Numbered from the stretch's first letter, positions 6,022 through 56,155 are shown. The stretch: DNA of 64,000 nucleotides from an uncultured Patescibacteria group bacterium (GCA_947259245.1 CAMYLP010000003.1:27118-91117), one strand, 5' to 3'. Notes: generated by a model from the letters alone, not told the origin. Numbers and translations are program-made.

Positions 6022-6957
6022 CTACTTTTTTTTGGCGTCCTGTGGGTTTAACAGTATGTTAATTGCCTTGGTAATGATGGTCAGAATGTCGTGGTAGAAG
6101 TTCAGCTCAAGTATGTCGGCAAGCTTGAACCAACGAGCGTCGTCCAATCCTCCCTTTTCTTCTAACACAATATCAGCAAAAGGCGCTTCGAGAAGAAAGT
6201 ACGTGACATGTTTGCGTATCTTACCCTTCTCAGGGTTGCTAGCCACATACTCATTCTCACCAAGTTTTTCTCTGAGGTCCGCATCAAGGCCAAGTTCTTG
6301 CTTTATCTCACGTATCGTACCTTGTTCTTCGGTTTCAGCGTCTTCTATTCCACCCTTGGGCAGTGTCCAGTGACCAAAGACATCGTGTACAAGTGCTACA
6401 TATACGTCATCATCATGCCGTGCGTACACGACAGCCCCACCCTTGCGCTCGACGGGCATTTGGTCATATGGTACCAGCGGATGTTTCTTTCTTTCCTTGC
6501 GCTTGCTCGTCTCATCCTTACCTGGTTCACCAAGCTCTTTATATACGGATCCAAGTACGCCGTTGATGAATCTCCCAGAGGATTCACCCCCGAAGTTCTT
6601 ACCAAGTTCTATTGCCTCATTAATTGCCACTTTGGCAGGAACCTCACTACGATCAGCAAAAAGAAGTTCAAATAAGCCGATACGCAGTATGTTGCGATCC
6701 ACCCGTGAAATTTTATCTAGCGGCCATTCCGGAGCAGCCTTAGTTATGACCGCGTCCAGATCATTTTGCTTTTGGAGTATACCATCCAACAATGCCGTCA
6801 TAAACGGCTTATCTTGACTGTCGGGAGCAAACTCTCCAATATTTCTTTCAAGTATGTTGTTCGTGGCCGGGGTATTGTCGGAATTATCTTCGAGGTTCAT
6901 GTCCCACTCGAAGAGTGTCTGCAGTACAATAGACCGAGATAGGTGCCTGTTTGACAT
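6022..6957 (-). CDS. nusB: NusB antitermination factor fused to C-terminal NUDIX hydrolase domain
   Basis: N-terminal ~150 aa NusB-like (ISRVDRNILRIGLFELLF, AINEAIELGK); C-terminal ~155 aa with Nudix box GGIEDAETEEQGTIREIKQELGL. Confidence 0.75.
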   Translation of the reverse strand: MSNRHLSRSIVLQTLFEWDMNLEDNSDNTPATNNILERNIGEFAPDSQDKPFMTALLDGILQKQNDLDAVITKAAPEWPLDKISRVDRNILRIGLFELLFADRSEVPAKVAINEAIELGKNFGGESSGRFINGVLGSVYKELGEPGKDETSKRKERKKHPLVPYDQMPVERKGGAVVYARHDDDVYVALVHDVFGHWTLPKGGIEDAETEEQGTIREIKQELGLDADLREKLGENEYVASNPEKGKIRKHVTYFLLEAPFADIVLEEKGGLDDARWFKLADILELNFYHDILTIITKAINILLNPQDAKKK

Positions 6958-12272: not shown

Positions 12273-14123
12273 ATGTCTGACCGCACCTGCACGTGCGGTC
12301 AGTTTACTTTACATATGTCTAAATACGACCTACTATGTGTGTTTGTAGATACACAGCAGTACATGGAGCACGGACAGCTTGAAAAAATACGACACACACT
12401 AGCGCACCTCTTGGCTGCCGCAGTACTTGAACTCTACCCACATGCAAAGTGTGCGATCGGGCCTGCAATCGATGATGGCTTCTACTATGACTTTGACTTT
12501 TCGGGAGGGAGTAATCCGGGCGAACAGGACCTTGTACAAATTGAGCAAAAGATGCGCGAATTGCTTAAGAAGTGGGATGCCATTGTCGGTGAGAGTATTA
12601 GTAAGGAGACGGCACACGATGCGTTTAAGAATAATCCTTACAAGAATGAGCTCATAGATGACATCGTTGCACGTAATGAGGAGCTCACGCTGTACCACTC
12701 GATCGCCGGAGATAAACAAGTTTTCACAGACCTCTGCAGAGGCGGTCACTGTGAACATCCGAACAAAGATGTTGTAGCGGGTGCGTTCAAGCTTGACCGT
12801 ATTGCGGGTGCATACTGGCGTGGCAGCGAGAAAAACGAAATGTTAACTCGTATCTACGGCCTTGCATTTCCAGATAAGGAAACGTTGGATGCGTACATAC
12901 ATGCGCGAGAGGAGGCACGCAAACGGGACCACAAGAAGCTTGGACGAGAGCTTGACCTATTCTATATTGACGAGGACGTTGGAAAAGGTCTTCCTATGTG
13001 GACACCCAAGGGTACGCAAGTTAAGTTCGCTCTTGAAGAGTTCACGCGAGAGCTAGAACGGTCGTACGGGTATGAGCACGTGTGCACTCCCTACCTTGCC
13101 TCAAAGAAGCTGTACGAGATGTCAGGACACCTAGACCACTACAGCGATACAATGTATGCACCGATCGCGATGGACGATGACGTCATGTACCTGAGACCCA
13201 TGGCTTGTCCGCACCACATCAAACTCCTTCAGCGCAAACCCATCAGCTACCGCGAGCTTCCCATTCGTTACGCAGAAATTGCTGACTATAATCGGTACGA
13301 GAAATCAGGCGAGCTTATGGGTATGATACGAGTCCGGAAGTTTCAGCTTACTGATGCCCACGTCTTTGTGTCACCCGAGGGTTTGAAGGAAGAGTTCATA
13401 CACGTCTGTCAAATGATACAGGAGGGTATGAACGGACTTGGTATTAACGATATTGTTACATACCGCTTTTCCAAGCGTGATCCGCACAATACTGAAAAAT
13501 ACTATCCGGACGATGCACTCTGGACACGTGCCGAGGGTGTCATGAAGGAGGCATTGGACGAGCTTGGGCTCAGCTATGTTGAGGTAGAGGATGAGGCCGC
13601 CTTTTACGGTCCAAAGCTTGATGTACAGGCGAGGAACGTAAATGGTAAGGAGGACACGCTTTTCACTGCACAAATGGACTTTCTCTTACCAGAGAAGTTT
13701 GGTTTAGAGTACGTTGCTGAAGATGGCACGAAACAACGTCCAGTCATGATACATCGGTCTGCTATTGGTTCACTTGAACGTACGTTTGCCTTTCTCATTG
13801 AACATTATGCCGGCGCATTTCCTTTTTGGCTTGCACCTGTTCAGGTACGGGTCTTACCCGTTGGTGAGGCGCACAGTGAGTATGCAAGAGGAGTACACGA
13901 TGCGCTCCGCAAGTCGGGCATTCGTTCAGAACTTGATGAGTCCGCTGAATCACTTGGAAAGCGCATACGCTCGTGCAAAGTCGAGAAGCTGCCGTACTTC
14001 ATCGTTCTAGGCGACAAGGAGGTGGAAGCGAAGCAGGTGACCCTTGAAGGCAAGACAAAGGAGGTACATACGCTCGACTCACTTGTGTCGCTGCTAACTA
14101 TCAAAAAAAACACACGGACGTGA
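12273..14123 (+). CDS. thrS: threonyl-tRNA synthetase (TGS N1 region short/absent; N2 editing, catalytic and anticodon domains present)
   Basis: RHTLAHLLAAAV (editing HxxxH), DLCRGGHCEH, class II motifs (RDHKKLGREL, FQLTDAHVF), alternative starts at 12315/12363. Confidence 0.9.
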   Translation: MSDRTCTCGQFTLHMSKYDLLCVFVDTQQYMEHGQLEKIRHTLAHLLAAAVLELYPHAKCAIGPAIDDGFYYDFDFSGGSNPGEQDLVQIEQKMRELLKKWDAIVGESISKETAHDAFKNNPYKNELIDDIVARNEELTLYHSIAGDKQVFTDLCRGGHCEHPNKDVVAGAFKLDRIAGAYWRGSEKNEMLTRIYGLAFPDKETLDAYIHAREEARKRDHKKLGRELDLFYIDEDVGKGLPMWTPKGTQVKFALEEFTRELERSYGYEHVCTPYLASKKLYEMSGHLDHYSDTMYAPIAMDDDVMYLRPMACPHHIKLLQRKPISYRELPIRYAEIADYNRYEKSGELMGMIRVRKFQLTDAHVFVSPEGLKEEFIHVCQMIQEGMNGLGINDIVTYRFSKRDPHNTEKYYPDDALWTRAEGVMKEALDELGLSYVEVEDEAAFYGPKLDVQARNVNGKEDTLFTAQMDFLLPEKFGLEYVAEDGTKQRPVMIHRSAIGSLERTFAFLIEHYAGAFPFWLAPVQVRVLPVGEAHSEYARGVHDALRKSGIRSELDESAESLGKRIRSCKVEKLPYFIVLGDKEVEAKQVTLEGKTKEVHTLDSLVSLLTIKKNTRT

Positions 14124-14138
14124 GCCCGTGTGTTTTTC
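14103..14138. terminator. bidirectional rho-independent terminator between convergent thrS and 610-aa gene
   Basis: A8-CACACGG-acgtgagc-CCGTGTG-T5 hairpin at 14103-14137. Confidence 0.6.
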
Positions 14139-14148
14139 TGACGCGACG

Positions 14149-15981
14149 TTACTTGATACCCTGGAAAAGTTCGAATACTTTTGCGAGTGCTACTTTCGTG
14201 CCAATTCGAGCATTTGAATAGCTGTAGTCAACACATTCAACCAGAGTGCCGAGTACTTTTTCAAAGTCTGCAGCGCTCCAGGACGCGGTCAACTGTGCGA
14301 GTTGTGCATCTGGCTTGCGGTTGCCCTCAAGTCGATGCTTGTACACTTCGTCTAGGTCGCGAATAACACGGCCGATAAAATCTGCACTGTCTATTCCCTT
14401 TGTACCAAGCGTACGCAATAGTTCAAAGGCCTTTTGCTGTTGCTTTTCTACCAAGTACCCCACAAAGAGTGGTATGACTCGCATGTCATTGTCAGGTGCT
14501 GCCTCTACATTGTCAGTAACGGGTGAACCAGCATTTTGTGTTGCTTGTGCACGTTCCACGCGTTGGTGCGGTACATGTGCTCTTGGTGCTGACTGTGTCG
14601 GTACTGATCGTTGCGGCGCTGTAGCTCGAGACGTAACGGCAGGTGTTGTCGTGTCCACGGTCACATCTTGACCGCTTTGCGATGCTGAGCTCATGAGCTT
14701 TTGGCATCGTTCCTTCGACAGTAGAATCCACCCGTCTTCTCTTGGGTACATGGCTTTTGCCTGCCCGAATAGTCCATCAAGCACCTCCGTGCTGTGTTCG
14801 TTATCTTTGTTCACGAGTTCAGCTATCATACGGCCTGCTTCAGGTGACAACAGAATGTTGTCACGATGTGCGCGATCCTCGATCTGTGTGTACGAGTCAC
14901 CACCGTGCATATTGCTCATGCTAACGGGTGACGGAACAGCCGTGAGTTGGGACCGTTCGGTCGTGTGTGTATCCAAGAGTGTATGTACTGCTGCGTGCGA
15001 GTACGGACTCTTTTTTTCAGTGAGGTCGGCACGATACGTTTGAAAACGTTCAAGTGGTCGTACTACGGTTAGGGCGTATGCGATCAAGGCACTCAGTAGC
15101 AGAACTCCCATCCAGAATACAGCAGTCATTATTGGCCCTGCCTCAAAGCCAGTGTATGGTACCTGATCAAGTGTGATGAAGCTACCTGCACGTGTTACTG
15201 TGCTGTTAAGAAGAATGTTCGGCTCAGGCTCCTCCTCATCGTCGTCATTCACCACGGTACCACCACCACCATTGTCATCTTCATCGTCATCACCATTGCA
15301 GTTTATACAGCTTCCGCCACCGCCACCTCCGCCGCCACCTCCGCCGCCTGTGCTGATGGAAACTGAAGCACTACAGCTTGTGCTATCGCCATCGTCATTT
15401 GAGAATGAAGCTGTGTACGTGATATTTTCGCTTATCGTCACAATCTCACTTCCACTCGTCGCAACTGGTCCAAATCCCGGATCAAGTGTTCCAGTACTAG
15501 CATTATCACTAGACCATGTAATGGTCACCATGTCGCCACTGTTCACTGTAGATGCGCTTACGCTAATGTCACATGATAACTGGTCAACCGGTGGCTCAGT
15601 TTCCTTAGTCAATGCGACACAGACCGGCTGAACGCTGTTTGCAGAACTGAGGTCCGGGTAAGCTGCGTGATCTGCACGTACAGCATCAGCATCACTTGTA
15701 AGGACAAATGCGCTTTCAAGTGTTTCGTTGATCTGAGAAGAAACGACGTTGTCTTCAAGATCAGTTGTCGCTGCTGTGGCACCAAGCGTGGTGTCACCAG
15801 AAAGGAATGTCACGAACCAACTTTCATTTGGTTGTGAGTGGTCGACACGCGTTTCGTAGCCATCCCATGAAGCTGATTCCACAGTGTAGGTTCCAGCAGG
15901 AAGAGGTGCGCTGTACACATCACTCTGCGCATCGTCGAGAGCCCCATTGCTCATCAAGCGCTCGTGGTCACCAAAGTACAC
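14149..15981 (-). CDS. hypothetical membrane protein: ~315-aa ectodomain, poly-Gly/acidic linker, sorting-signal-like VPYTG + TM + R, ~330-aa cytoplasmic domain
   Basis: GTG start in ORF track; no own signal peptide; single TM IMTAVFWMGVLLLSALIAYALTVV; last gene of the sortase operon. Confidence 0.55.
   Translation of the reverse strand: MYFGDHERLMSNGALDDAQSDVYSAPLPAGTYTVESASWDGYETRVDHSQPNESWFVTFLSGDTTLGATAATTDLEDNVVSSQINETLESAFVLTSDADAVRADHAAYPDLSSANSVQPVCVALTKETEPPVDQLSCDISVSASTVNSGDMVTITWSSDNASTGTLDPGFGPVATSGSEIVTISENITYTASFSNDDGDSTSCSASVSISTGGGGGGGGGGGGSCINCNGDDDEDDNGGGGTVVNDDDEEEPEPNILLNSTVTRAGSFITLDQVPYTGFEAGPIMTAVFWMGVLLLSALIAYALTVVRPLERFQTYRADLTEKKSPYSHAAVHTLLDTHTTERSQLTAVPSPVSMSNMHGGDSYTQIEDRAHRDNILLSPEAGRMIAELVNKDNEHSTEVLDGLFGQAKAMYPREDGWILLSKERCQKLMSSASQSGQDVTVDTTTPAVTSRATAPQRSVPTQSAPRAHVPHQRVERAQATQNAGSPVTDNVEAAPDNDMRVIPLFVGYLVEKQQQKAFELLRTLGTKGIDSADFIGRVIRDLDEVYKHRLEGNRKPDAQLAQLTASWSAADFEKVLGTLVECVDYSYSNARIGTKVALAKVFELFQGIK
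15314..15350. repeat. GGN/GCC codon repeat encoding 12-Gly tract
   Basis: tccgccaccgccacctccgccgccacctccgccgcc on + strand (poly-Gly on minus). Confidence 0.8.
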
Positions 15982-15997
15982 GACCTCGGTGTTTGCG

Positions 15998-16657
15998 TCA
16001 GGAGTGAACGGACATACAGGACCTTCCGGTTCGGTCTGACACGCACGTACGCTCTACAGTAGTGGAACATTGCCCTCCTTTACCTGAAACACTGGAAAGC
16101 TGTTTGTTGAATTCTACTGTCTCAACATCACTCCACGATTCTTCGACTTTACCACTGGATGTACCATCACAGAAATATGCAGTGTAGTGTGATAGCGCAG
16201 GAGGACCAGCCCATGTGAAGCTTGTCTCATGTATCGATAGGTCTACAGACTCACATGTATTGGTCGGTGCTGTGGCTGGCTCTACATGTACGGCACATGA
16301 CATTGTATCGTCAGTGTAGTCAACGTGTGTGTGCGCTACGAATGTCGTCGGCTCGTGAATGACTGTTTGTACCGAACCTGTACGACCAAATACCTGTCCT
16401 TCCAGCTGTTCTATGGTGAGTGAATCAGTATCTGCTGCAGCGTTCCATGACAGAGTTACGATAGTGCCTTCTGCGGAGTATTCAGTCACCGCCTCAATAG
16501 TACATTCCCATGCCAATGCTGACTCCGTCGCAAAACGTACAGGTGCCGCCTCAAGCATGAATAGTGCCATGATGACGAATGCACTCAGCACACCGCTTTT
16601 CAATAGCGTAGTTGCATGTGATCGTGCGATTTTTGTAATATGTGTAATGGTGTTCAT
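15998..16657 (-). CDS. hypothetical secreted protein (signal peptide, Cys-containing beta-rich domain)
   Basis: N-terminal signal/TM LLKSGVLSAFVIMALFMLEAAPV; 3' end overlaps the next ORF by 59 nt in another frame. Confidence 0.5.
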   Translation of the reverse strand: MNTITHITKIARSHATTLLKSGVLSAFVIMALFMLEAAPVRFATESALAWECTIEAVTEYSAEGTIVTLSWNAAADTDSLTIEQLEGQVFGRTGSVQTVIHEPTTFVAHTHVDYTDDTMSCAVHVEPATAPTNTCESVDLSIHETSFTWAGPPALSHYTAYFCDGTSSGKVEESWSDVETVEFNKQLSSVSGKGGQCSTTVERTCVSDRTGRSCMSVHS

Positions 16658-16690
16658 ACCGTTGTATGAGTTTCTAATAAGGGCATCGTA

Positions 16691-17359
16691 CTACTGTACG
16701 TACTGCTTTTTGTCTGTTAATGATGCGGTGACTACCCACCGCTCCTGCTTGGCGCCAAACGTGTTGCACGTGGCCAAAGTCAGTGTGGGCGTATCCGCCT
16801 CGAAGTAAATAACTGCGTCATCCGCATTAGCTAGGTATACATCGCGGACTGTGTATTCATACGTGTGCGTATCAGAGTACACAGTGACAACGTCACCATC
16901 ATGCAGTTCTCCCAACTCATTGAACGCTTTGTACGCTTCATTTCGAACCACTGGCAAGTAGCTGCTATGTCCAAAAATGAGCATGTTCGCGCTCTCACCG
17001 GCTAGGCCGGAACCAGGGTACAGCACGGCTCCAGACAATAATGCGCGATCGAGCACCTCTACATCTGTGCTCGTGGGTGACAAAACTGTGGTGTCCACGT
17101 CGATGTCATCGATAACAATGCGTACAGGTGTCGTCAACTCGTACGGCACGTCTACTGCTTCCGTTGTGTTGCCAGAAGCAGGTGTTGCGTACAGTACATC
17201 TGTTGATGTGCTGGTTGACTCGTTGGTCACGGGGACTGGAACGAAATCGATAAGTATTAGCAAGAACGTAAGCACTGCAAATACACCAAACGTTTGCAGT
17301 ACGACGTGCGCACTGTTCGATAGCGTATCTCCTATGCTCCTGTTCTCCTTGTTACTCAT
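16691..17359 (-). CDS. sortase family transpeptidase
   Basis: N-terminal TM, LIFGHSS (His) and TLATCNTFG (TLxTC catalytic Cys) motifs. Confidence 0.85.
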   Translation of the reverse strand: MSNKENRSIGDTLSNSAHVVLQTFGVFAVLTFLLILIDFVPVPVTNESTSTSTDVLYATPASGNTTEAVDVPYELTTPVRIVIDDIDVDTTVLSPTSTDVEVLDRALLSGAVLYPGSGLAGESANMLIFGHSSYLPVVRNEAYKAFNELGELHDGDVVTVYSDTHTYEYTVRDVYLANADDAVIYFEADTPTLTLATCNTFGAKQERWVVTASLTDKKQYVQ

Positions 17360-17421
17360 ATGTTGTTCGTGTGCCGATGGACACACAAGAGCATATAACT
17401 AAATATATTATAGCAGCTATA

Positions 17422-18198
17422 TTATATGCTGTCAATGGTTGCTCCGCGTCCTTCTATAATGAGCGAGGCAAACGCGCGTGCAACTTGTCCGAAGGAGACA
17501 GTGTCAGTGTCGTCTTTCTCTTCATAGTGCACCGTAATAGACTTGGTAGCACAAGTAGGACTTTGTACAGTGATGTGCTGTTTACGTTGAAGTCGCACCA
17601 CCACTACACCCTCAGTTCCCTCCTCATGAATACGAATAGCTCGACGTGCTTTCTTGGCGTTACTCAGACCACTGTCGTTTCCGTGTGTCACAGCCACCGG
17701 AGCAAGACGTAGCGCATACATTGGTGCCCGAACAGCTAAACTGTTACGGTCGTACGAATTTTGTAAGTACGACGTGATGTTTGTACATACAGAACCCAAA
17801 CGTACAAGAATATTTTCGCTTACGCTATCGAGTATGACAAACATTTTCATACTTACTTCGAAAGTTCGTGTGGCTATACTATGTAGTCTCGCGACAATGC
17901 CTGAAAGCCACGTTTGAATGTCTTCGCTAGTTACTGTCGGCACCAAGTGCTTGTTAGGATGCGTGGGGAATATCCTCGCAGCCACAATGTCAGCATCATG
18001 TGTTTTGTACGTATCATGATCCAGATTCAATATTGAGTGTATCTCCGTATGTACGGGCGGTTCGTCCGCATAACATGTTGGCGATGATGCGCGCCGAACA
18101 TCCTCACTCTCAGTAAGGATATCAATAAGAAATTGTGTTTCGTCGAGACACAGCGTATGTGGCACGATCGAGTCTAGTTCTACAGTATTGTATTCCAT
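17422..18198 (-). CDS. hypothetical cytoplasmic protein (258 aa), first gene of sortase operon
   Basis: No TM or signal peptide, no recognised motif; preceded by consensus promoter. Confidence 0.45.
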   Translation of the reverse strand: MEYNTVELDSIVPHTLCLDETQFLIDILTESEDVRRASSPTCYADEPPVHTEIHSILNLDHDTYKTHDADIVAARIFPTHPNKHLVPTVTSEDIQTWLSGIVARLHSIATRTFEVSMKMFVILDSVSENILVRLGSVCTNITSYLQNSYDRNSLAVRAPMYALRLAPVAVTHGNDSGLSNAKKARRAIRIHEEGTEGVVVVRLQRKQHITVQSPTCATKSITVHYEEKDDTDTVSFGQVARAFASLIIEGRGATIDSI

Positions 18199-18220
18199 GC
18201 AACGTAATTTGTGTGTCTTT

Positions 18221-18274
18221 GTATACCAGCTTTATCTAGCTCTGTCAAGTTTTTCTATACAATAAAACTTGACA
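18221..18274. promoter_or_regulatory. divergent promoters sharing a 32-bp perfect palindrome (TGTCAAGTTTT-N10-AAAACTTGACA) whose arms carry both -35 hexamers
   Basis: Minus: TTGACA(rc 18243-48)-17-TATACA(rc 18221-26); plus: TTGACA(18269-74)-17-TATAGA(18292-97). Confidence 0.5.
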
Positions 18275-18347
18275 CTACACTAGCTATATGATATAGATAT
18301 CGCATACTCATTATTATCACAGGCATCACACGCCTGTCGGACAAAGT

Positions 18348-19418
18348 ATGAATGATAAGCAAAAAAAACGAAGTGAGAGCATAGCTGCAGGCGTCATGCG
18401 TGTTTTCGCTGTTATTGGACTTATTTCAATATTGGCACTAGCCGCGTGGATCGTTGTACAAGGTGCACGCTTCGCTCCAGAGGTTGGTGAGAAGCTGGGA
18501 GCTGCAGTTACCACAGTCACGTCTGTATTCAGCCGCACGCCAGGTGCCTCACTTACCTTCGACGTAGCACAACGCACTGTTAGTTCTGGTGACGTTGTAA
18601 CAGTCGGATACGAGTATCGTGGTGACGTCATACCATTGTCGTACGATTTTTCTTATGCGTGCGATACATCAGTCATACTCAGTATGAAGTCCGGAGACGA
18701 GTGGTCTTCCCTGCCCTGTGCTACAGGTGTTGCGGTTAGTGGGGATCAAGTACAGTTTATTCCGGTTAGCGACGACAAACGTCTTACGAGTCTGGCCATC
18801 ACGATCTCGGGTGGTGACATCACCGACACGACGATACTGACCGTAGTCAATACAAATGTTGCCAGTACCACGGAAGACGGTGACATCGTCCTGGATGAGA
18901 CCGCTCTGGATGATGCGTCTGCGCAGGACTCAGGCTCACCAGACAATGTAGACAACGATATGGTCTCGTCTGACATTGCGTCCACTGAATCTACTGCTAC
19001 CCGACAGTCGACGTACGTCGTGTCAACACCTGTGGATCGCACACCCGCAGACCTCATGGTGACAATCAAACAAACAGGAGTTCTGGTACCAGTTGCAGGT
19101 GATAACACGTTCTTCGAACTTTCACCTATACCATCTGACAGAACCGCCGCTGTCCGCTTTACGGTGACCAATGAAGGCGGTCAACACTCGGGTGCATGGG
19201 CCTTTGTTGCCAACCTGCCCGTACGTGGTGACGAGGAGTATCGGTATGTTTCTCCTGCACAGGCATCTCTCGCACCGAACATGGAGGTTGAATTTACACT
19301 GGGATTTGACGAAGTGTTAGACGCTTCGGTGGGTACGGTTCGCATCGAAATATTTCCGACAAACACAGTGGATCCGGTCGGTAATAACCTAGACATGGTC
19401 AACATCACTATTGACTAA
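18348..19418 (+). CDS. hypothetical membrane-anchored extracellular protein (356 aa)
   Basis: N-terminal TM VFAVIGLISILALAAWIVV; Thr/Ser/Asp/Val-rich beta-rich ectodomain. Confidence 0.5.
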   Translation: MNDKQKKRSESIAAGVMRVFAVIGLISILALAAWIVVQGARFAPEVGEKLGAAVTTVTSVFSRTPGASLTFDVAQRTVSSGDVVTVGYEYRGDVIPLSYDFSYACDTSVILSMKSGDEWSSLPCATGVAVSGDQVQFIPVSDDKRLTSLAITISGGDITDTTILTVVNTNVASTTEDGDIVLDETALDDASAQDSGSPDNVDNDMVSSDIASTESTATRQSTYVVSTPVDRTPADLMVTIKQTGVLVPVAGDNTFFELSPIPSDRTAAVRFTVTNEGGQHSGAWAFVANLPVRGDEEYRYVSPAQASLAPNMEVEFTLGFDEVLDASVGTVRIEIFPTNTVDPVGNNLDMVNITID

Positions 19419-34477: not shown

Positions 34478-35776
34478 CTACGCGGGCAAGTCGACGGTAA
34501 ATGTCGTCCCTTCACCCAGTTGACTGCTAAACGTAATACCGCCCCCCATGGCTTCCGCGAGGGCTTTACACATGTAGAGCCCGATTCCGTTGCCATTCAC
34601 CTCCATACCCTTGGCGTTTGATGCTCGATACAATTTTTGGAATATGCGACCCTGCTCCTCCGGCGGGATTCCTACGCCGTTGTCCTGTACCTCAAGCACA
34701 ATGCCGTGTGACGTTTGCTGAGACCGTAAGAGCACGGTACCGCCGTTCTCAGTATAACGTAGAGCGTTGGACAGTAGGTTTTGCAGTATGATGCGCACCA
34801 GTCGTCCATCCGTATTAAAGTGAAACCCTTCGTTAACCTCCGTACGCAATGTAATGTCCTTATCATGTGCATTTGGCTCCAGCTCCTCTACCACACTAAA
34901 CGTAAGGTTCGTGATATCTGTGTCTTCCTTCTGCACCTGGACACGTCCCATCTCTATCCGGGACAGGTTAAGCAGTGTATTGACAAGATCTATCATGTCT
35001 TCATTTCTGTGGTACATCTTCAGTAAATAGCCCTGCACTTCCTCGGTCAACTGATTTACACGACGTGTCAGTAGAAAGTCTATGTACCACTTCAGATTTG
35101 CTAGCGGGGCCCGTAGCTGATGGCTCGCCAGTGAAAGAAACTCGGTCTTGATACGCTCCAGTTCTTTTTGCTCATGTATGTCGACGAGTGTGACAAGCCC
35201 CTGTCGCCCTTTGTCCTTCTCAAGTAGATTTTCTATGGAGAGCAGCGCCCATCGTAGTGTGCCATTATTTTGTATGATCTGGACTTCCTGTTGCTCAAGC
35301 GCCACCCCACGTGCGACTCGTTCTCTAAACAGCATGAGCTTGTTTTCCTCTTCTGTATTTGTAAAGAGGTCAAAGATATTTTTTTGCATGAGTTCTTCAC
35401 CCGTTAGTCCAAACATTCGAACCGACGCCTTATTAGGTCTGGTGATGCGACCCTGCGGCGTGATCAACAGGTATGGTACCGGCGATAGTTCATAAAACCT
35501 TCTAAATTGGTCCTTTGTAAACGACAGGTCCTTCGTAATCGTGTATGCCATGCGTCTAGCGAGCGAACGTGTGCTCAATGATACAAAGATAACTACTGTC
35601 AGAAGAAATGCTGCTACCGTCGCAACTATGAGAACATAGCGCAGTAGTTCAAGTGCTATGGGAAGTGCTTGTTCAGGTGATTGAAGTACTGCAAGCTGCG
35701 TCGTGTAGTACGTGTATACAAAAAACAGACCGCCGGCGAAAATAACTACGCTCACTATACTTACAATGTACTTCAT
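34478..35776 (-). CDS. sensor histidine kinase (2 TM, PAS, HisKA, HATPase_c)
   Basis: H-box LSLASHQLRAPL, N/G boxes (NGNGIGLYMCKALAEAMGG); start trimmed to MKYIVSIV ATG 35776. Confidence 0.85.
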   Translation of the reverse strand: MKYIVSIVSVVIFAGGLFFVYTYYTTQLAVLQSPEQALPIALELLRYVLIVATVAAFLLTVVIFVSLSTRSLARRMAYTITKDLSFTKDQFRRFYELSPVPYLLITPQGRITRPNKASVRMFGLTGEELMQKNIFDLFTNTEEENKLMLFRERVARGVALEQQEVQIIQNNGTLRWALLSIENLLEKDKGRQGLVTLVDIHEQKELERIKTEFLSLASHQLRAPLANLKWYIDFLLTRRVNQLTEEVQGYLLKMYHRNEDMIDLVNTLLNLSRIEMGRVQVQKEDTDITNLTFSVVEELEPNAHDKDITLRTEVNEGFHFNTDGRLVRIILQNLLSNALRYTENGGTVLLRSQQTSHGIVLEVQDNGVGIPPEEQGRIFQKLYRASNAKGMEVNGNGIGLYMCKALAEAMGGGITFSSQLGEGTTFTVDLPA

Positions 35777-35925
35777 AAACGGGCACGTCTCGTACGTTGT
35801 ATTAGTATACCACCCGAAAGATGTATAGATTATCAGTTGTATACACATCTATCGTACGTGCTGCCCCCTTGCGCTCTGCGCACGGGATAGTGTAGTATTC
35901 GTACTCACGGATAACGACTGCAGAC

Positions 35926-36620: not shown

Positions 36621-37742
36621 CTACGACTGGACGAAAGGTGTGGTACCTGCCATGTCATGCTCATACCAACCGCTTGAAATGTAGGTGTTTGTAGCATCAG
36701 CCAGTGCACTTACATCTGTAAATCTACCGTCAACACTTGAACCGAGAACCACGACGACTATTGGATGATCCATGCCTGCATCGTATATGATCGCCAAATT
36801 GCCACCAGCTTCGTCAGTGTAGCCGGTTTTGCTTCCAAGCATCCCGGGGCGATCAAGTACGTATTCGTTTGTGTTGACTGCTTCATGGATAAATCCTGTC
36901 GTCGACTCGAACGACCTACTGTAGTAGGCGGTGTCGCGGAAGACTTCAGGCTGTTCGTTCCATACATGGGCAACGAGTCGAGCTACGTCCTCGGCAGTAC
37001 CCGTACCTCCGTACCCGTACTGCTCCGAATCAAGTCCGGACGGGTTTCGATATGTGGTGTTCATGAGTCCAAGCGTCGATGCGCGTCTGTTCATACGCTC
37101 CACAAACTTGTCAACATGGGCATATTCTGCTGACGTGTTAGCTGTCGTGCCGTCTACCGAGCCGACTGCCATCGCTACCGCGTTAGCACCATCATTACTG
37201 CTCGTCATCATCAAAAACGACACAAGGTCACTCAGTCGCCATGTTTCCTGTGCTAGCAGGCCTGAATCACCCTCGGCCTGTATGGCTGAGGGGCTTATCG
37301 TTACATCAGCATCAGGATTGCCCTCCTCGTACGCCAAAAGACCGGTCATCATTTTTGTCAACGATGCGAGCGGGCGAACCTCCGCTTCGTTTCGGGCGTA
37401 CAGCACTTTGCCGGTACGCACATCGTAGACAACCGCGGCACGGGCCTCAATATCGACAGATAAGAGAGGGTTCTCTGTGTTGGGCGTAACGACCGTGCGT
37501 AGATCTGTGACGGGTCCTGCGAGGGGCAGATGTTCAGCACTGAACCACGAGACGGTCGACGCCACCAGCACTGCACCGGTGATAATGACAGCCGCTGCAA
37601 ATGCACGCGTCTGTTCTTGCGTAGAATCGAGTACCGAGTCTACCATGACCTCGCCGCTACGCGACTGCAGCACAAGTGTGTGGTCCTCAAGTACTGTCTC
37701 GCGTGGCATAGTTTCGTGTTGTGTGTTCTCTGCATCTGACAT
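36621..37742 (-). CDS. D-alanyl-D-alanine carboxypeptidase (S11, low-MW PBP)
   Basis: SxxK (ASLTKMMT), SxN (SSND), KTG (SKTGYT) motifs; N-terminal TM. Confidence 0.85.
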   Translation of the reverse strand: MSDAENTQHETMPRETVLEDHTLVLQSRSGEVMVDSVLDSTQEQTRAFAAAVIITGAVLVASTVSWFSAEHLPLAGPVTDLRTVVTPNTENPLLSVDIEARAAVVYDVRTGKVLYARNEAEVRPLASLTKMMTGLLAYEEGNPDADVTISPSAIQAEGDSGLLAQETWRLSDLVSFLMMTSSNDGANAVAMAVGSVDGTTANTSAEYAHVDKFVERMNRRASTLGLMNTTYRNPSGLDSEQYGYGGTGTAEDVARLVAHVWNEQPEVFRDTAYYSRSFESTTGFIHEAVNTNEYVLDRPGMLGSKTGYTDEAGGNLAIIYDAGMDHPIVVVVLGSSVDGRFTDVSALADATNTYISSGWYEHDMAGTTPFVQS

Positions 37743-41490: not shown

Positions 41491-43158
41491 CTACTTTTCC
41501 AACTTCGTATTATCCTCATCATACAGCGGCAACTCGACCGTAAACGTCGTTCCCTGACCCACACCTGGGCTGGTAATGTGTATCCAACCATCGTGTGCCT
41601 TTACTATTTCACGAGCAATGTAGAGACCGAGACCTGCGCCGTACACGGACACCGTATTTGCGTTCGACGCGCGGTTAAATTTCTGGAACAGATTTTGGAG
41701 CTCATCTGCGGCGATGCCGATACCGGTATCAGACACCGTTATCAAGACTCTGTTACTTGCCATGGAAAGTTTGAGATGCACCTTGATGGAACCCTCAATA
41801 GTGTACTTGATAGCGTTGTCGATGAGGTTTTGAAATACCTGACTGAGCTTGCTTTCGTCCGCAGCAACATACACCGGCTCGTCGACATCTGAAGTGAGAG
41901 CGATTTCAAGCCCCTTTTGTTCGCCAATAACGGAGAGCTCTTCCACCTCTTTGCGAACCATGTCCTGAATATCACTCTTGCGTAGGTTGTAGCTCATGCG
42001 ACCCTGCTCGATACGCGTCACATTCAGGAAGTCGTCCACCATAATACTGATGCGCTTGCCTGACTCAAAGATGCGCGAGAGTGGCTCTGAGAGGCCCTTG
42101 GGTACCTTTCCGTAGCTCCCATCACGTGTAAGTGATGCGTAACCCACGATGGCGGCTATGGGCCCGCGTAGCTGATGGCTAGCAATGGAGACGAACTCGG
42201 TTTTCTGTTTGTCGAGCGTGCGTAAGCGAGCATTCGCGTTCGCGAGATAGCGCGCGAGACGTTCTCCTTTTTCACGGTACTCTATCTCTTGCGATATTTG
42301 GTGCAGTAACAACGAACTTAGGATCGTTAATACGACGAGCACGATCAACATGAACATGAGCTCGAAGATAGATCGCACGAAGAACAATGCCAGGAGTGCA
42401 ATGATGGGTATCAGGTACGCGTATGCCTGTGCAACGGTCGAGCGAAAATCAAGAATGTCATACTTAAACATTCCGTATACAATGACGAATACCATTAAAA
42501 GCGAGATGGTGGGACCGATCCAAAAAAATTGAAATATGTTGAACTGAGGTAAAACAAGGTTTGTGAGTACACCAATAGGACCGGCTGAAGCTGTACCTGC
42601 CAGTACATACTTTGACTGCATACGTTTCACGCTTGAAGTATGCACGTGGTGCAAGACCATGTGATAAAAGGCTACAGCGAATAGTCCAAATATGTAGAAG
42701 ATATAAACGTTGTGCCATGGGCCAAAGCGCACCTTACGTAAGCCATCGTCAATATATGACTCGCCCACAAGCAACGTTGAAAATAGCAAGAGAGCACTAA
42801 TGACAATAAATGAGATAATGTATGGCGCGTTTCGTGTCACTATTGTCAGATACGACACGTCATTGCTTACCCGCTGAGATACTGCAAACAGCACAAAACT
42901 GAGTGGAATAGAAGCTGCGGTTACGTACAACATTTTTGTAACGAAGTCCAGGTACACATTGCCAAGCGGAAGAATGTCAAAAAACGAGTGGGCAATAGCC
43001 CAAGACGCAACACCAATTGTGAGGAGAAAGAATGAGAAACCAGTCTTTTTATTCCGTAACGTCCCAAGCAGGTACGAAAGACCAAGAAGCAAGGTCAGTA
43101 CCGATGCTATTATGAGCAGCCCCGACCGTACGGTGATTATTGAATGTACTGCGTCCAT
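41491..43158 (-). CDS. sensor histidine kinase with N-terminal ~7-TM sensing domain
   Basis: Multi-TM N-terminus, H-box FVSIASHQLRGPIAAI, HATPase N/G boxes; no cognate regulator adjacent. Confidence 0.85.
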   Translation of the reverse strand: MDAVHSIITVRSGLLIIASVLTLLLGLSYLLGTLRNKKTGFSFFLLTIGVASWAIAHSFFDILPLGNVYLDFVTKMLYVTAASIPLSFVLFAVSQRVSNDVSYLTIVTRNAPYIISFIVISALLLFSTLLVGESYIDDGLRKVRFGPWHNVYIFYIFGLFAVAFYHMVLHHVHTSSVKRMQSKYVLAGTASAGPIGVLTNLVLPQFNIFQFFWIGPTISLLMVFVIVYGMFKYDILDFRSTVAQAYAYLIPIIALLALFFVRSIFELMFMLIVLVVLTILSSLLLHQISQEIEYREKGERLARYLANANARLRTLDKQKTEFVSIASHQLRGPIAAIVGYASLTRDGSYGKVPKGLSEPLSRIFESGKRISIMVDDFLNVTRIEQGRMSYNLRKSDIQDMVRKEVEELSVIGEQKGLEIALTSDVDEPVYVAADESKLSQVFQNLIDNAIKYTIEGSIKVHLKLSMASNRVLITVSDTGIGIAADELQNLFQKFNRASNANTVSVYGAGLGLYIAREIVKAHDGWIHITSPGVGQGTTFTVELPLYDEDNTKLEK

Positions 43159-43160
43159 GT

Positions 43161-44354
43161 TTACTCAAACCTCATTTCAATAACTTTTGCTGTTTTAGAT
43201 AACTCATTCTTTTGTTGTTCAAAACTTCTGATGTATGCCTCTTTATCTATGTAGTTATAAAAAATGTTTTGATCGAACTCATATGTTGTTGTCATGTAAA
43301 ACCCGTAGTAATGTAATTTTTTTGAAACATCGCGAAGGGAGGGGACAATGTAGCTAAGCAGGAAAATGATCTTGTATAAGAACGTCACAACGCTACGTGG
43401 CATAGTAACAACGTGCATCCGTAGACCTATCTCCTTTAAAGTTACCTTTGAAATTTGATGCATGGTAAGTGGAGTGGGATTCACAAGGTGCAATATTGTG
43501 CCGTTTGGTAACTTCTCACGTAGGGACACTAACCGTGCAACATTCTCACATACTATTGACAGTGGAATCAGATTCATTGTAGTGGGTGTAACCATGAACG
43601 GGAGATAGTTTAAACAAACATCTTTGTCTTTCATATGTATACCAACAGACGCTGAAATGTAGGGATGGTCAATGCAAAATTTTACAAGGAGCTGTTTCAA
43701 CCCTAGCATAGCACGCACCAGTGCATAGTAGCCAAACAAAGTTGTAGGTTCGCCCTTACTATCCATCGTACCAAACACTACACTTGGTCTGATTACGACG
43801 TATTTTAATCCCATTTCCTTCAGCGCAAGTAATGCAAGTTCTGCCTCATACTTACTTTGCTCATATGAGTTATTAAATTTCTCCTGGTTAGGAGTTTGCT
43901 CGTAATGCACGCCCTGAGATTTTCCATGAACGTAGGCAGTGCTAATGAAATAGAGAGTAGTATTCAACTCCTTCGCAAGGCCTGCAATGTTACGTGTTCC
44001 ATTAACATTTGTCTTAATAACCTCGCTGCCATCTTTGCTCCTGAAGCTCAAGTTTGCTGCTAGGTGCACTATTGCATCTACACGACCTACACCACCTAAA
44101 ATTGTTTCAATCTGTTCGCTTATCGAATCATGTACCAAATCACATATGTTCGCCTGTATCACATGTACCCGTTTCCAAGCCTCCGGTGTGAAATCATACT
44201 CGGATTGTACCCTTTCTTTTACATCTTCATTCTGTGTTGGACGAACGATCAGAATTACCGTGTCACCGCGTTGCACAAAAAGTTTGGTCAGTTCGTGTCC
44301 AATGTATCCTGTCGCACCTGTTATGACGTACACCTGTGAGGAAGTATTGCCCAT
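43161..44354 (-). CDS. NAD(P)-binding extended SDR, thioester/fatty-acyl reductase-like (NAD_binding_4-like)
   Basis: ITGATGYIGHEL Rossmann motif, YEQSK catalytic YxxxK; 397 aa. Confidence 0.65.
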   Translation of the reverse strand: MGNTSSQVYVITGATGYIGHELTKLFVQRGDTVILIVRPTQNEDVKERVQSEYDFTPEAWKRVHVIQANICDLVHDSISEQIETILGGVGRVDAIVHLAANLSFRSKDGSEVIKTNVNGTRNIAGLAKELNTTLYFISTAYVHGKSQGVHYEQTPNQEKFNNSYEQSKYEAELALLALKEMGLKYVVIRPSVVFGTMDSKGEPTTLFGYYALVRAMLGLKQLLVKFCIDHPYISASVGIHMKDKDVCLNYLPFMVTPTTMNLIPLSIVCENVARLVSLREKLPNGTILHLVNPTPLTMHQISKVTLKEIGLRMHVVTMPRSVVTFLYKIIFLLSYIVPSLRDVSKKLHYYGFYMTTTYEFDQNIFYNYIDKEAYIRSFEQQKNELSKTAKVIEMRFE

Positions 44355-44451
44355 TGTGACATTATACGAGGCGATGCACTTACAACAAAACCACCCACAA
44401 GCATTGTTGCTGGCATTTCATGCGCTATGCATTGTTTTTTGAAAAGAGTGT

Positions 44452-45177
44452 TTATTGTAGTCGCCCAATGTTTTCCATTACTGACTGTGCTTTCTGGCGA
44501 TATTGTGGGGTGCCAGGTTGTTCTGTACCATCGAAAATATCCTCCGGATAAATGGGTTTGCCAATCACGATTTTAATATGATGTTGTCGCGCAATAAATT
44601 TTTTGAGTGTAATATTGAACGTCCCCTGCATGTTTATAGGAATAATGGGTGACTTGGTACGTTCAGAAAGATAGATAAAGCCTGGTTTTGCATTACCGAC
44701 ATCGCCCGTTTGTGTCTTTTTCCCTTCTGGAAAAATACAAACAGATCGTCCCATATTCAATATTCTAATATGGTGCCCTAGCGCAAGCTCATAGTTACGT
44801 ATCCCTCTGTATACTGGATAAGCACCCATAAGTCTAAAGAGGATGCCACCATAACAAAGTGAACGTACGCCGTACTTTTTAAATGGGTAGTCCTTTTTCG
44901 TGAGTGAAACAAAGTACAGGGGTACCTGTTTACACAACAGTGGTAGTGCATATTGTACCATTACAGGATCCACCTCGCTCGAATGATTTACCGCCAAAAT
45001 CGTACCTTTACCATGTACGAGACGAAGGTTCTCTGTCCCAGTAACCGTGAACTTTGCGAATGTCAAAAGTAAGATACGTGCGAACGGCCACAACAAAATA
45101 TGGAACAGTGTTGTCGGCAACCAAAATATATGAGCGTCACTCTTTAGAGCTTCACTTCTTGGATCAGGGGTGTTCAT
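44452..45177 (-). CDS. 1-acyl-sn-glycerol-3-phosphate acyltransferase family (PlsC-like)
   Basis: HxxxxD (NHSSEVD) and FPEGKKT acyltransferase motifs; N-terminal TM. Confidence 0.75.
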   Translation of the reverse strand: MNTPDPRSEALKSDAHIFWLPTTLFHILLWPFARILLLTFAKFTVTGTENLRLVHGKGTILAVNHSSEVDPVMVQYALPLLCKQVPLYFVSLTKKDYPFKKYGVRSLCYGGILFRLMGAYPVYRGIRNYELALGHHIRILNMGRSVCIFPEGKKTQTGDVGNAKPGFIYLSERTKSPIIPINMQGTFNITLKKFIARQHHIKIVIGKPIYPEDIFDGTEQPGTPQYRQKAQSVMENIGRLQ

Positions 45178-45317
45178 GGCTGTCTCTCAGTATCATTCGT
45201 GCTGCACGTACTATCTCGTACACTTTATGTGCTGCAAGTCTCCAATTTACTTTTGCTAATACACGTTACAGAGGTATTGTAGCATCTTTACAAGTAGATG
45301 TAAAGTGTGTCATAATA

Positions 45318-45833
45318 TCAAGGACGCACAAAAAGTGGGATACTCACAATAGGCACAAGGAGCCAGCCGAACAAGGCAACCGGTGTCGCAAAAAGAGCGT
45401 AAAAGACGACGCTGAAGCTATAAAGTGTCGCGATGTTGACCACGTTGAACAGAACAGCCAAAAAGAGTCCTGTTATTGAGACAGCGAGCACAAGCGCCTC
45501 AACGAAGCGCCATACCACTCGGAGTTGAAAAGTGCTCTTTAGGTACTTGCGCATGACCGTAAAGATGATGATGCTTGATATGAGAAGGACGATGAGCCTT
45601 TCGTAGGTGTCTGAGTTTGCAAGTTCTAGCGACACCCTGCCGTAGTAAGGAAACGTCTGCGTGATGAGCGCCGCTGGATAGAGCGCAACCAGGATAGTGA
45701 GAAGTACATCCTTTCCGCGTGTAAGCGCTGCTGCTGTAGCTAGTGCGAGAAGACTGAGTACGCCAAAAATATCCACGCCAACACTCGTGAGTGATGTACG
45801 GATTGAACTCTCGAACTCTGTTGGATCGAACAT
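45318..45833 (-). CDS. hypothetical polytopic membrane protein (171 aa)
   Basis: 5-6 hydrophobic helices, no known motif. Confidence 0.4.
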   Translation of the reverse strand: MFDPTEFESSIRTSLTSVGVDIFGVLSLLALATAAALTRGKDVLLTILVALYPAALITQTFPYYGRVSLELANSDTYERLIVLLISSIIIFTVMRKYLKSTFQLRVVWRFVEALVLAVSITGLFLAVLFNVVNIATLYSFSVVFYALFATPVALFGWLLVPIVSIPLFVRP

Positions 45834-45837
45834 GCGC

Positions 45838-46908
45838 TTACACGCCCTCGTCTCGTAGTGCTTCCGCAGCCTTCTTTGCCTTTCGCGAAAGCTTCCCGGG
45901 GACCTGTATGTCTATTGTAATATAAAGATCGCCTCGTGTACCATAGCGCTGTGGAACACCTTTCCCCTTCACTCGCAAACGTTCACCGTGGGTGACACCT
46001 TGAGGAATCTTCACGTTGATTTCACCGTCGAGCGTCTCCACCTTATATGAGCTTCCAAGGAGTGCGTCTGTCACCTTAACTGACAGTGGCATAACAATAT
46101 TGTTACCCTCCTTCCTGAAACGCTGGTCTGATTTGACGTGTACCTTCACGTACAGGTCTCCGGCCGCACCGCCCGGCACTGCCTCACCGTGACCTTGCAT
46201 GCGTATCATTTCACCATTCTCGATGCCAGCCGGCACCGCTATAGCTACCTCTTCCTCCTGACGTGCGACACCATGTCCGTGACATGTTGTGCACTTCTCC
46301 TTAGGGACCTTGCCAGTGCCATTGCACTCACTACACGCGCGGGTTGTTGCAAATGTGCCGAGCACTGTCTGTCGCGATTCGTGCACTTTTCCTGCACCAT
46401 TGCATGTCGAACAGGTGGTAAGCTCGGTACCACGCTTGGCACCAGAGCCATCGCAGCTCTCACAAGAACTTGTTTTTGTCAGGAGTACCTTTCGCTTAAC
46501 CCCAAAAATAGACTCTTTAAAAGTAAGTTCGATGTCTATCGAGATATCACGACCACGTCGCATGCGTTGACCTCCGCCAAAGAAATCTGAAAAGATGTCA
46601 CCAAGGTCGAACTCTACACCACCATGAGTCCCGCCGAAGCCCTGAGCGAAGTTCGAAAAGTCAAAACCACCTGCAGGACCGCCCGCACCACCACCTTGGA
46701 ACGTGCGGCCGTATGTATCGTACTCAGCTCTCCGCTTTTCATCTGAGAGTACGGCGTACGCCTCACCGATCTCTTTGAACCGCTGCTCGTCACCTCCCTG
46801 CTTGTCAGGATGGTATCTATGGGCCAGCTTTCGAAAGGCCTTCTTTATTTCGTCCTTGGAGGCACCTTTTTCGACACCAAGGACGGTGTAGTAGTCTTTA
46901 TTGCTCAT
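45838..46908 (-). CDS. dnaJ: chaperone DnaJ
   Basis: J domain with HPD (AHRYHPDKQ), G/F region, four CxxCxGxG zinc repeats. Confidence 0.95.
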
Positions 46909-55588: not shown

Positions 55589-56155
55589 TTATGCATATGT
55601 TCTGATAACGCTCCGCACAACACCGCCAACCTCAAGTGACTGCTCGGGATGTAGGTCCGGGTACTCTTCGTTTGCCGCTTCAAGGTACTTACGCCCGCGT
55701 TTCTCACGCAGGTACTTAACCGTCCATTCACCATCAATGCTTGCAACCACGATGTCATTCAATCGTGCGGTCTCTGTGCGCTCTACCAAAAGAAGATCCC
55801 CCTCATAAATACCCGCGTCTATCATAGACTCTCCCTTCACGCGCAATAAATAGAGTTTATCCCGACTCCCTAAGAGGAGCTCGTCCATGGTGACGTGGTC
55901 AAGAGCTATTTCCTCTGCGGGTGTTGGGAACCCCGCTTCGATGTAACCCACCAGTGGCACCTCGTCGCCTAGAGCAAGCGGCACAAGCTTGCCGCGTCCA
56001 TCCTTACGGACAACGCCTGCGTCTATCAGTTTTTCAACCACCTTTGCAACGGCGTTCTTTGAGGCAAAGCCGAAAAGAGCACACATCTCGCTGTAGCCCG
56101 GCATTCGTTTGTGCTTTCGATAAAAAGTCTGCAGCTGTTTCTTATACTGTTCCAT
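55589..56155 (-). CDS. lexA: LexA repressor
   Basis: N-terminal wHTH; VKGESM catalytic Ser and TVKYL Lys; AG cleavage-site context. Confidence 0.9.
   Translation of the reverse strand: MEQYKKQLQTFYRKHKRMPGYSEMCALFGFASKNAVAKVVEKLIDAGVVRKDGRGKLVPLALGDEVPLVGYIEAGFPTPAEEIALDHVTMDELLLGSRDKLYLLRVKGESMIDAGIYEGDLLLVERTETARLNDIVVASIDGEWTVKYLREKRGRKYLEAANEEYPDLHPEQSLEVGGVVRSVIRTYA

Follow-up and report, generated by a model that had tools for sequence, protein, structure and literature searches.

A sortase and its neighbouring surface protein in Paceibacteria, with a sorting-signal-like motif placed ahead of a conserved cytoplasmic tail

We analysed a sortase locus in a stretch of 64,000 nucleotides (the window; GCA_947259245.1 CAMYLP010000003.1:27118-91117) from an uncultured Patescibacteria group bacterium. 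Four consecutive open reading frames (ORFs) lie on the minus strand at 14149-18198, between thrS and a divergent gene for a protein of 356 amino acids (aa), which is followed by gyrB (Table 1). An original prediction made from the sequence alone had described a four-gene operon, in which a 258-aa protein and a sortase precede a 219-aa secreted protein and a 610-aa membrane protein with an internally positioned sorting signal. ORFs of 258, 231, 219 and 610 aa were all found in the translation, and the 231-aa protein was confirmed as a sortase with the expected TLxTC signature (TLATC) by its match to PF04203 (E 4e-22; score 78.7 bits, cut-off 26.6). It has an N-terminal membrane anchor and all three catalytic residues, His in GHSSYLP, Cys in TLATC and Arg in QERWVV; among 53 sortases encoded next to genes with the PYTG motif described below, conservation of each of these columns reaches 90% or more. 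The nearest solved structure is that of B. anthracis SrtD (2LN7, E 1e-8). With its His/Cys/Arg triad intact, the enzyme looks active.

The reading as four genes did not hold. Judged against their homologues, the 219-aa and 610-aa ORFs are pieces of one gene, here called the substrate gene, which leaves three genes at the locus and turns the supposed 219-aa secreted protein into a frameshift artefact, the N-terminal piece of a protein of ~835 aa. Homologues of the 610-aa ORF come from metagenome-assembled genomes of Paceibacteria/Parcubacteria and are 700-1050 aa long; their N-terminal part corresponds to the 219-aa ORF (signal peptide, then Ig-like and 'FTWAGPP...FCDG' domains) and runs into the sequence of the 610-aa ORF. 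Both pieces lie in one ORF in homologues of 748-990 aa (P0001-P0063 span both), and the substrate is a single ORF in the loci L001, L002, L004 and L005. Three-frame translation against the homologues placed the frameshift between a Cys codon at 16045-16043 and a CAG codon at 16038-16036, as one extra base or two missing ones, so that the frames join between ...VERTC and QTEPEGPVCPF..., i.e., between ...GKGGQCSTTVERTC and QTEPEGPVCPFTPDANTEVVYF.... The GTG 'start' at 15981 lies inside VVYFGD and is an artefact of ORF listing. Once repaired, the substrate measures ~835 aa, compared with 748-879 aa for the closest full-coverage homologues. The signal peptide that the ectodomain had been said to lack lies on the upstream piece, which is in the same ORF in homologues, and it seemed to be missing because the frameshift splits the gene.

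Because both halves are otherwise intact and retain every invariant position of the family, the shift stems either from an assembly error or from a very recent mutation or inactivation. It is somewhat unlikely, in our estimate, that the frameshift is real, the substrate gene of this genome a pseudogene and the cassette inactive or decaying. Such decay would agree with the position of the shift outside any homopolymer, at ~16039-16042, and with the lack of a signal peptide on the downstream piece itself. It is opposed by the state of the two pieces, which are otherwise intact over 2.5 kb, with the downstream one 40-47% identical to its closest homologues, and by the intact sortase and its perfect promoter; a single-base metagenome assembly error accounts for the shift equally well.

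Table 1. Position and basis of the features at the sortase locus and of genes mentioned in the text
Feature	Position	Strand	Basis or remark
thrS	12273-14123	+	
Substrate gene, one gene, ~835 aa when repaired	14149-16657	-	frameshift-interrupted; homologues are single ORFs
610-aa ORF	14149-15981	-	downstream piece of substrate gene
Domain B, all-helical	14152-14478	-	resembles clamp-loader collar domain III
Domain A, AAA+-lid-like, helix-strand-helix twice	14695-14883	-	IEDRAH..ILLSPEA...YPREDGWILLSKER; model, pLDDT >90
24-residue membrane helix, then RPLER	15046-15132	-	IMTAVFWMGVLLLSALIAYALTVV, aa 284-307; RPLER aa 308-312 (stop-transfer, positive inside)
Sorting motif LDQ-VPYTG-FEAGP	15133-15171	-	LDQVPYTGFEAGP, aa 271-283 of 610-aa ORF; putative scissile bond between T and G
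Peptide across putative cleavage site of substrate			...TLDQVPYTGFEAGP...
Disordered stalk: 12 Gly, C-I-N-C, acidic linker	15220-15348	-	pLDDT <50
Ig-like beta-sandwich, last folded ectodomain	15355-15576	-	model, pLDDT >90
Beta-jelly-roll ectodomain	15601-16002	-	resembles carbohydrate-binding modules CBM36, CBM6, CBM35
219-aa ORF	15998-16657	-	upstream piece of substrate gene
Frameshift site	16039-16042 (about)	-	three-frame translation against homologues
Sec-type signal peptide or N-terminal anchor	16508-16657	-	translation; also in full-length homologues
Sortase, 231 aa	16691-17386	-	PF04203
Sigma-70 promoter, TTGACA-17-TG-TATAAT, 12/12, extended -10	17407-17435	-	consensus scan of 13900-18500
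258-aa ORF	17422-18198	-	no membrane helix, no family match
Promoter-like site TTGACA, 17-nt spacer, TGnTATACA	18220-18248	-	read from sequence, upstream of 258-aa ORF
356-aa protein, N-terminal anchor	18348-19418	+	divergent from operon
D-Ala-D-Ala carboxypeptidase gene	36621-37742		

The substrate carries the internal signal that had been described for it: LDQ-VPYTG-FEAG, the 24-residue helix and RPLER were all found in the 610-aa ORF, and P, T and G are invariant in homologues. The 24 helix residues are all uncharged and are followed by RPLERFQTYR. Across 77 aligned tails the invariant columns of the motif are L, P, Y, T, G, F, E, A and G; in the helix, F24 is invariant and the residue next to it is W or Y. 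The signal peptide (MNTITHITKIARSHATTLLKSGVLSAFVIMALFMLEAAP...ALA-WE) has a basic n-region, the hydrophobic stretch SGVLSAFVIMALFMLEAAP and the ALA-WE junction. It joins the substrate polypeptide only when the frameshift is repaired, and it was present in all full-length homologues inspected. The topology signals thus comprise the signal peptide and one helix with acidic residues on its outer side and basic residues on its inner side. As far as sequence can tell, the motif with its helix and basic residues looks like a genuine sortase sorting signal that has been placed inside a protein. A search of all six frames of the window for Px[TSA][GASN] ahead of 18 uncharged residues returned no other site, hence no other LPXTG-type substrate, and the homologues have no stop after the helix apart from eight frameshifted loci in which the tail goes on in another frame; on these two counts, the conditions that the original prediction had named for its own refutation did not refute it.

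On the outer side of the helix, the ectodomain of the repaired protein spans ~450 aa, rather than the ~315 aa first estimated, and holds 4 Lys. Structure prediction for 15187-16038 with 45 homologues (mean pLDDT 88) gave the jelly-roll and Ig-like domains of Table 1, followed by a stalk with 12 Gly at aa 212-223 of the 610-aa ORF, C-I-N-C at aa 225-228 and the acidic linker at aa 231-254. A repeated CxxSxSP...TLxW...TTYTGTF unit was seen in homologues, in keeping with the Ig-like assignment. The architecture of the ectodomain varies across the family, with Ig-like, DUF11, DUF7507 and filamin-type matches, while motif, helix and tail are constant. It looks like an adhesin or lectin, as is usual for sortase substrates. 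We also observed an extracellular CxxC element, GGGG-x-C-[LI]-N-C (15298-15348), ~45 residues before the sorting motif. The element is nearly invariant in the window's subfamily, to which it is restricted (14 of 117 loci); elsewhere in the family, subfamilies show C-x-(2-4)-C-GGG variants or an Ig domain with RDQQPLVAGISL at its end.

On the inner side, 303 residues follow the RPLER-side end of the helix, up to aa 610 of the ORF, somewhat fewer than the ~330 of the original prediction. The model of this region places the helix at residues 18-41, domain A at 96-170, a disordered linker at 171-236 and domain B at 237-343, with a mean pLDDT of 78 overall and values >90 in the folded parts; the residues from the helix to domain A are also disordered (pLDDT <50). 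Across the 77 tails, domain A has invariant E, L, S, G and W residues, and tblastn matched it in 100 of the 124 loci. The window's own domain B gave direct matches in 18 loci and proved general with queries from other subfamilies. Some 14 loci stop after domain A, and six have a 73-aa tail only. A Foldseek search with the tail returned clamp-loader chains for all of its top 34 matches (33 of E. coli gamma/tau and one of B. subtilis delta), the best at E 5e-4 with a probability of 1.0. It is one of two structure searches that independently support a clamp-loader-like fold, in which the tail shows the lid (domain II) and the collar (domain III) of clamp-loader subunits. A profile of the 77 tails against the sequences of the Protein Data Bank gave marginal matches at most (E 0.8-0.9), to the domain III region of E. 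coli delta (residues 211-282). No AAA family of Pfam or NCBIfam matched, and the tail contains no ATPase domain, i.e., no AAA+ domain I. The tail therefore differs from the clamp-loader subunits DnaX (tau/gamma), HolA (delta), HolB (delta') and RFC and from the C-terminal region of MgsA/RarA in that it lacks domain I, is anchored in the membrane, has its two domains split by a disordered linker of ~65 aa and shows no significant sequence similarity to them. The disordered cytoplasmic linkers contain conserved linear motifs (family alignments A1, A3 and A5; 14479-14694 between the domains in the window). In the window's subfamily, [ED][RK]P-x-R-V-E stands between domain A and domain B, where the window reads VPHQRVERAQ; in the larger 'FY' subfamily, P-x-N-L-P-x-G follows the helix. 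These linker motifs may be partner-binding sites.

The family extends far beyond this genome. All 91 homologues of a first search carry L-x-Q-[VILT]-PYTGF and a hydrophobic helix, mostly 270-400 residues before the C-terminus. A DNA-pattern scan of species-representative genomes for DNA encoding PYTGFEAG found at least 119 stretches. Among the matches listed, pooled with five further loci, the motif precedes a helix in 112 loci, the remaining matches being helix-less chance hits. Nearly all of the 112 are labelled Patescibacteria, Paceibacteria, Kaiserbacteria or Nomurabacteria, with a few other bin labels. Each genome occurs once among these at least 119 matches, aside from two contigs already represented by another locus, and two complete chromosomes are included, which is consistent with one such gene per genome. 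The tail follows in frame in 93 of the 112 loci and resumes in another frame in 8 that are frameshifted; the continuation of the protein past the signal, as originally predicted, is thus not a misassembly. A search of 1.84 billion representatives with a profile of the tail yielded 722 clusters (50% identity) at E <= 1e-3 and 656 at E <= 1e-10, and all that we saw belong to Patescibacteria. Among the best 150 of the 722, the tail match is always C-terminal and every full-length protein has [VIL]P[YHF]TG and a helix just before it; about 20 without the motif are short gene calls that begin within or after the helix, except P0099, a long protein missed by the pattern, which reads VPYTGI. The motif reads VPYTGF in 144 cases, IPYTGF in 24, LPYTGF in 5 and TPYTGF in 3. 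Within [VIL]P[YHF]TG, the residues P, T and G are unchanged in all 181 motif-bearing proteins read, and five (e.g., P0001-P0003) read LPYTG, a canonical LPXTG. A 48-column profile of motif and helix, run against a database of 5.8 billion proteins, gave 581 word candidates and none at E <= 0.01, the module probably being too short and hydrophobic for HMMER. Neither half of the protein matched Pfam or NCBIfam, bar scattered Ig-like/DUF11-type matches in the ectodomains of some homologues. No published description of the family was found in the literature searched, the coverage of which is incomplete, so that this is absence of evidence only.

A truly classical, short-tailed member was not found among the 112 loci. 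Five short-tailed loci (L062, L081, L110, L119 and L049) were considered as classical relatives and rejected, since domain A resumes in another frame past the stop, as does domain B in L062, L081 and L049. In another six (L016, L045, L090, L095, L097 and L100) the frame-0 tail ends 71-74 aa past the motif, without domain A; just past the stop, four of these six read, in the +2 frame, a conserved YYHDDTPPNLPIGEKPDYL that contains P-x-N-L-P-x-G and ends in a stop codon. We further observed a run of nine A residues (A9) between the helix and domain A in six homologous loci, ~95 nt after the motif in L062, L110 and L119 and ~290 nt after it in L080, L103 and L115. All six are out of frame past the run; the tail resumes in the +2 frame, and one added A gives the long form. 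The zero-frame product is a classical sorting signal in the first three (...VIKKKVS, then stop), and it retains ~70 tail residues in the other three. No in-frame A10 was found in about 110 loci; elsewhere, nearly every A7 or A8 run leaves the frame intact, an exception being the A7 locus of L081, which is frameshifted. From these sequences, the A9 runs may represent either programmed slippage that yields two isoforms or a systematic assembly error. The tau/gamma isoforms of dnaX arise by frameshifting or transcriptional slippage on an A-run, and the six loci share with them an A9 followed by a tail in the +2 frame; the window gene has no A9 run.

Linkage to a sortase was counted in the 64 loci with at least 1 kb of upstream sequence. 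A same-strand upstream sortase lies within 1.5 kb in 50 of them and within an 8-kb tile in 57, and the linkage extends to homologues that match 26-30% of the 610-aa query at ~31% identity. In the window, the gap between sortase and substrate is 33 nt, with no terminator-like site predicted in it. The consensus promoter said to drive the four genes is real but imperfect: its TTGACA lies at 18248-18243, and its -10 hexamer lacks the final T, so the consensus scan did not list it. It does not appear to be the single driver of all the genes, as the sole perfect match within 13900-18500, a 12/12 sigma-70 promoter, adjoins the sortase, in the 3' end of the 258-aa ORF and 21 nt before the sortase start. 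The 258-aa ORF gave no Pfam or NCBIfam match and no tblastn match at 1e-3 in 124 loci. It faintly resembles the same-position genes of L001 and L002 (E 2e-4 and 1e-3) and is absent from the distant loci L004 and L005, where the sortase is the first gene; it is probably a fast-evolving accessory gene of the window's subfamily only. Because this ORF is faintly conserved and missing in distant genomes, the conserved unit is, as the compared loci indicate, the sortase plus its substrate.

On balance, we lean towards the view that the locus encodes a dedicated sortase and a single downstream cognate surface protein of Paceibacteria (Parcubacteria, candidate phyla radiation), with cleavage predicted between T and G and the tail left in the membrane. 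Such a pairing is favoured because the catalytic triad is intact, P, T and G are invariant, the linkage is conserved, and tail and motif occur together. The helix would hold the exported precursor in the membrane, the sortase would cut between T and G and move the ectodomain to the cell wall, and a fragment composed of G-FEAGP, the helix and the tail would remain membrane-bound. The tail would probably oligomerise or dock the precursor to a cytoplasmic partner, and in this way it would determine the place or the time at which the surface protein is installed, or else signal that processing is done.

Several points weigh against this interpretation. Cleavage and wall attachment are both steps that we infer. 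Classical SrtA-type LPXTG signals of Gram-positive bacteria are C-terminal and sortase-cleaved. The locus shares with these systems a His/Cys/Arg cysteine transpeptidase and a substrate in which a hydrophobic-P-x-T-G motif leads into a hydrophobic segment and basic residues and which, in its repaired form, starts with a signal peptide; it differs in the ~300 conserved, folded cytoplasmic residues past the signal, which thus does not occupy the extreme C-terminal position that defines sorting signals. The FEAGP residues past the presumed cut do not vary, and neither does the helix F with its W or Y neighbour, which is atypical of classical signals, and the FEAGP-helix segment could work as an intact unit. 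The sortase, again in contrast to classical systems, misses every curated class cut-off and is unclassified by the NCBIfam classes: it lies under the cut-offs of all classes A-F and GN, with class D best at 45 bits against 165 and classes E, C, F and GN likewise far below theirs. In its predicted structure, the tail resembles clamp-loader domains II and III without domain I, a structural likeness for which homology is not established. Finally, sortase adjacency could partly reflect the general synteny of the region; it is weaker evidence because the whole neighbourhood (pheT-gyrB-...-thrS-dnaE) is syntenic across the group.

The main rival, which corresponds to the non-cleaved mimic of the original prediction and which we regard as unlikely without dismissing it, is that the substrate is an uncleaved type I membrane protein, in which PYTGFEAGP and the helix form a structural or interaction module that docks the membrane anchor of the sortase or another partner, and the intact chain links surface and cytoplasm. 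The invariance of residues past the would-be cut and within the helix speaks for this, as do cytoplasmic domains as conserved as the motif and the score of 0 truly classical short tails in 112 loci. On the other side, the retention of His, Cys and Arg in the 53 neighbouring sortases argues for an active enzyme, the positions of the motif that never change are P, T and G, the very determinants of sortases, and the window offers the sortase no other candidate substrate.

A further reading combines cleaved and uncleaved states, and we entertain it with marked doubt. Sortase cleavage would be a regulated switch, in a transmembrane device shared by the whole lineage: the uncleaved protein would couple the adhesin or lectin to a clamp-loader-like oligomerisation module that may touch the replication or chromosome machinery encoded nearby (dnaE, gyrB). 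Upon cleavage, the ectodomain would become fixed to the wall and the freed, membrane-anchored module would change state, and A9 slippage would set the ratio of tail-less or nearly tail-less to tailed forms in some lineages. If true, this would be a new, sortase-built form of outside-in coupling.

We consider it quite improbable that the sortase drives polymerisation or protein-protein ligation of a pilus- or S-layer-like kind, with the acyl-enzyme resolved by a Lys or the N-terminal Gly of another copy instead of a cell-wall precursor. In its favour, the sortase comes closest to classes C, D and E and not to the housekeeping class A, Ig-like repeats occur in the ectodomain, and cleavage would yield an N-terminal Gly on the retained fragment; the single substrate gene without a pilin gene cluster, the 4 Lys in an ectodomain of ~450 aa and the failure to find a pilin motif (YPKN) or an E-box argue against it. 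That the motif is a chance likeness to LPXTG in an ordinary membrane protein, for which its shortness alone could be cited, was rejected as next to impossible in view of its conservation across homologues, since it is the sole such site in six frames of 64 kb and is invariant across hundreds of clusters, adjoining a sortase.

The reading as a dedicated sortase with one cognate protein has parallels elsewhere. The GN sortase (TIGR03784), a proteobacterial 'marine' class, has one adjacent target. Shared features are a sortase beside a single substrate, about one pair per genome and a motif tighter than plain LPXTG; GN targets differ in ending in a classical tripartite signal, and they belong to another phylum and another sortase clade. 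The window sortase matches TIGR03784 weakly (E 8.5e-5, 22 bits against a cut-off of 158) and is not a member. In Streptococcus gordonii, as summarised in PMC11326707, an intramembrane histidine kinase senses C-pep, a membrane remnant left after sortase A cleavage. This provides a precedent for an informative membrane remnant of sortase cleavage. In that system the remnant is only a short sorting peptide and a separate kinase senses it, whereas the remnant proposed here would itself carry two folded domains.

Among the neighbouring genes, the 356-aa protein gave no Pfam or NCBIfam match; it has tblastn matches in 34 loci and occupies the same position in L001, L002 and L005, and this conserved neighbour might belong to the sortase system. 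Pfam and NCBIfam hits of the 258-, 219-, 610- and 356-aa proteins were noise (FANCAA, YoaH), well under cut-off. A scan of 45 ORFs of the window, which left out 58.8-64 kb and some short ORFs, found no dnaX, holA, second sortase or second substrate. The D-Ala-D-Ala carboxypeptidase gene indicates that the organism makes peptidoglycan. Two sensor histidine kinases lie on the minus strand at 34478-35848 and 41491-43158, the first or second of them containing PAS domains and the other an N-terminal 7TM region; by analogy with S. gordonii, they might play a part should a membrane remnant be sensed. We also noted a GC dip at 42001-46000 (0.44-0.45 against about 0.49-0.52 elsewhere in the window), the genes of which include an NAD-dependent epimerase/dehydratase and an acyltransferase, both related to envelope or sugar modification. 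On the minus strand, a Y-family polymerase of the IMS/UmuC-like type (52111-53394) and a LexA/UmuD-like S24 peptidase (55589-56155) form a close SOS-type pair in a small genome, and a 311-aa ORF at 6022-6957 on the minus strand fuses NusB with a NUDIX hydrolase domain.

By definition, a sortase substrate has a C-terminal signal that is lost upon cleavage, whereas here ~300 conserved, folded cytoplasmic residues follow that signal, in a substrate that is apparently the sole client of a dedicated sortase in a lineage of ultra-small bacteria. The architecture is lineage-wide, present in hundreds of related genomes, and not a one-off. Substrate predictors that need a C-terminal motif miss the family entirely; it is well delimited and could become a curated model. 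If the protein is cleaved, the leftover would be a membrane-tethered cytoplasmic module instead of a throw-away peptide, which would widen the uses of sortases to signalling, positioning or quality control. The family would also offer a handle on the envelope biology of Paceibacteria, which is almost unknown.

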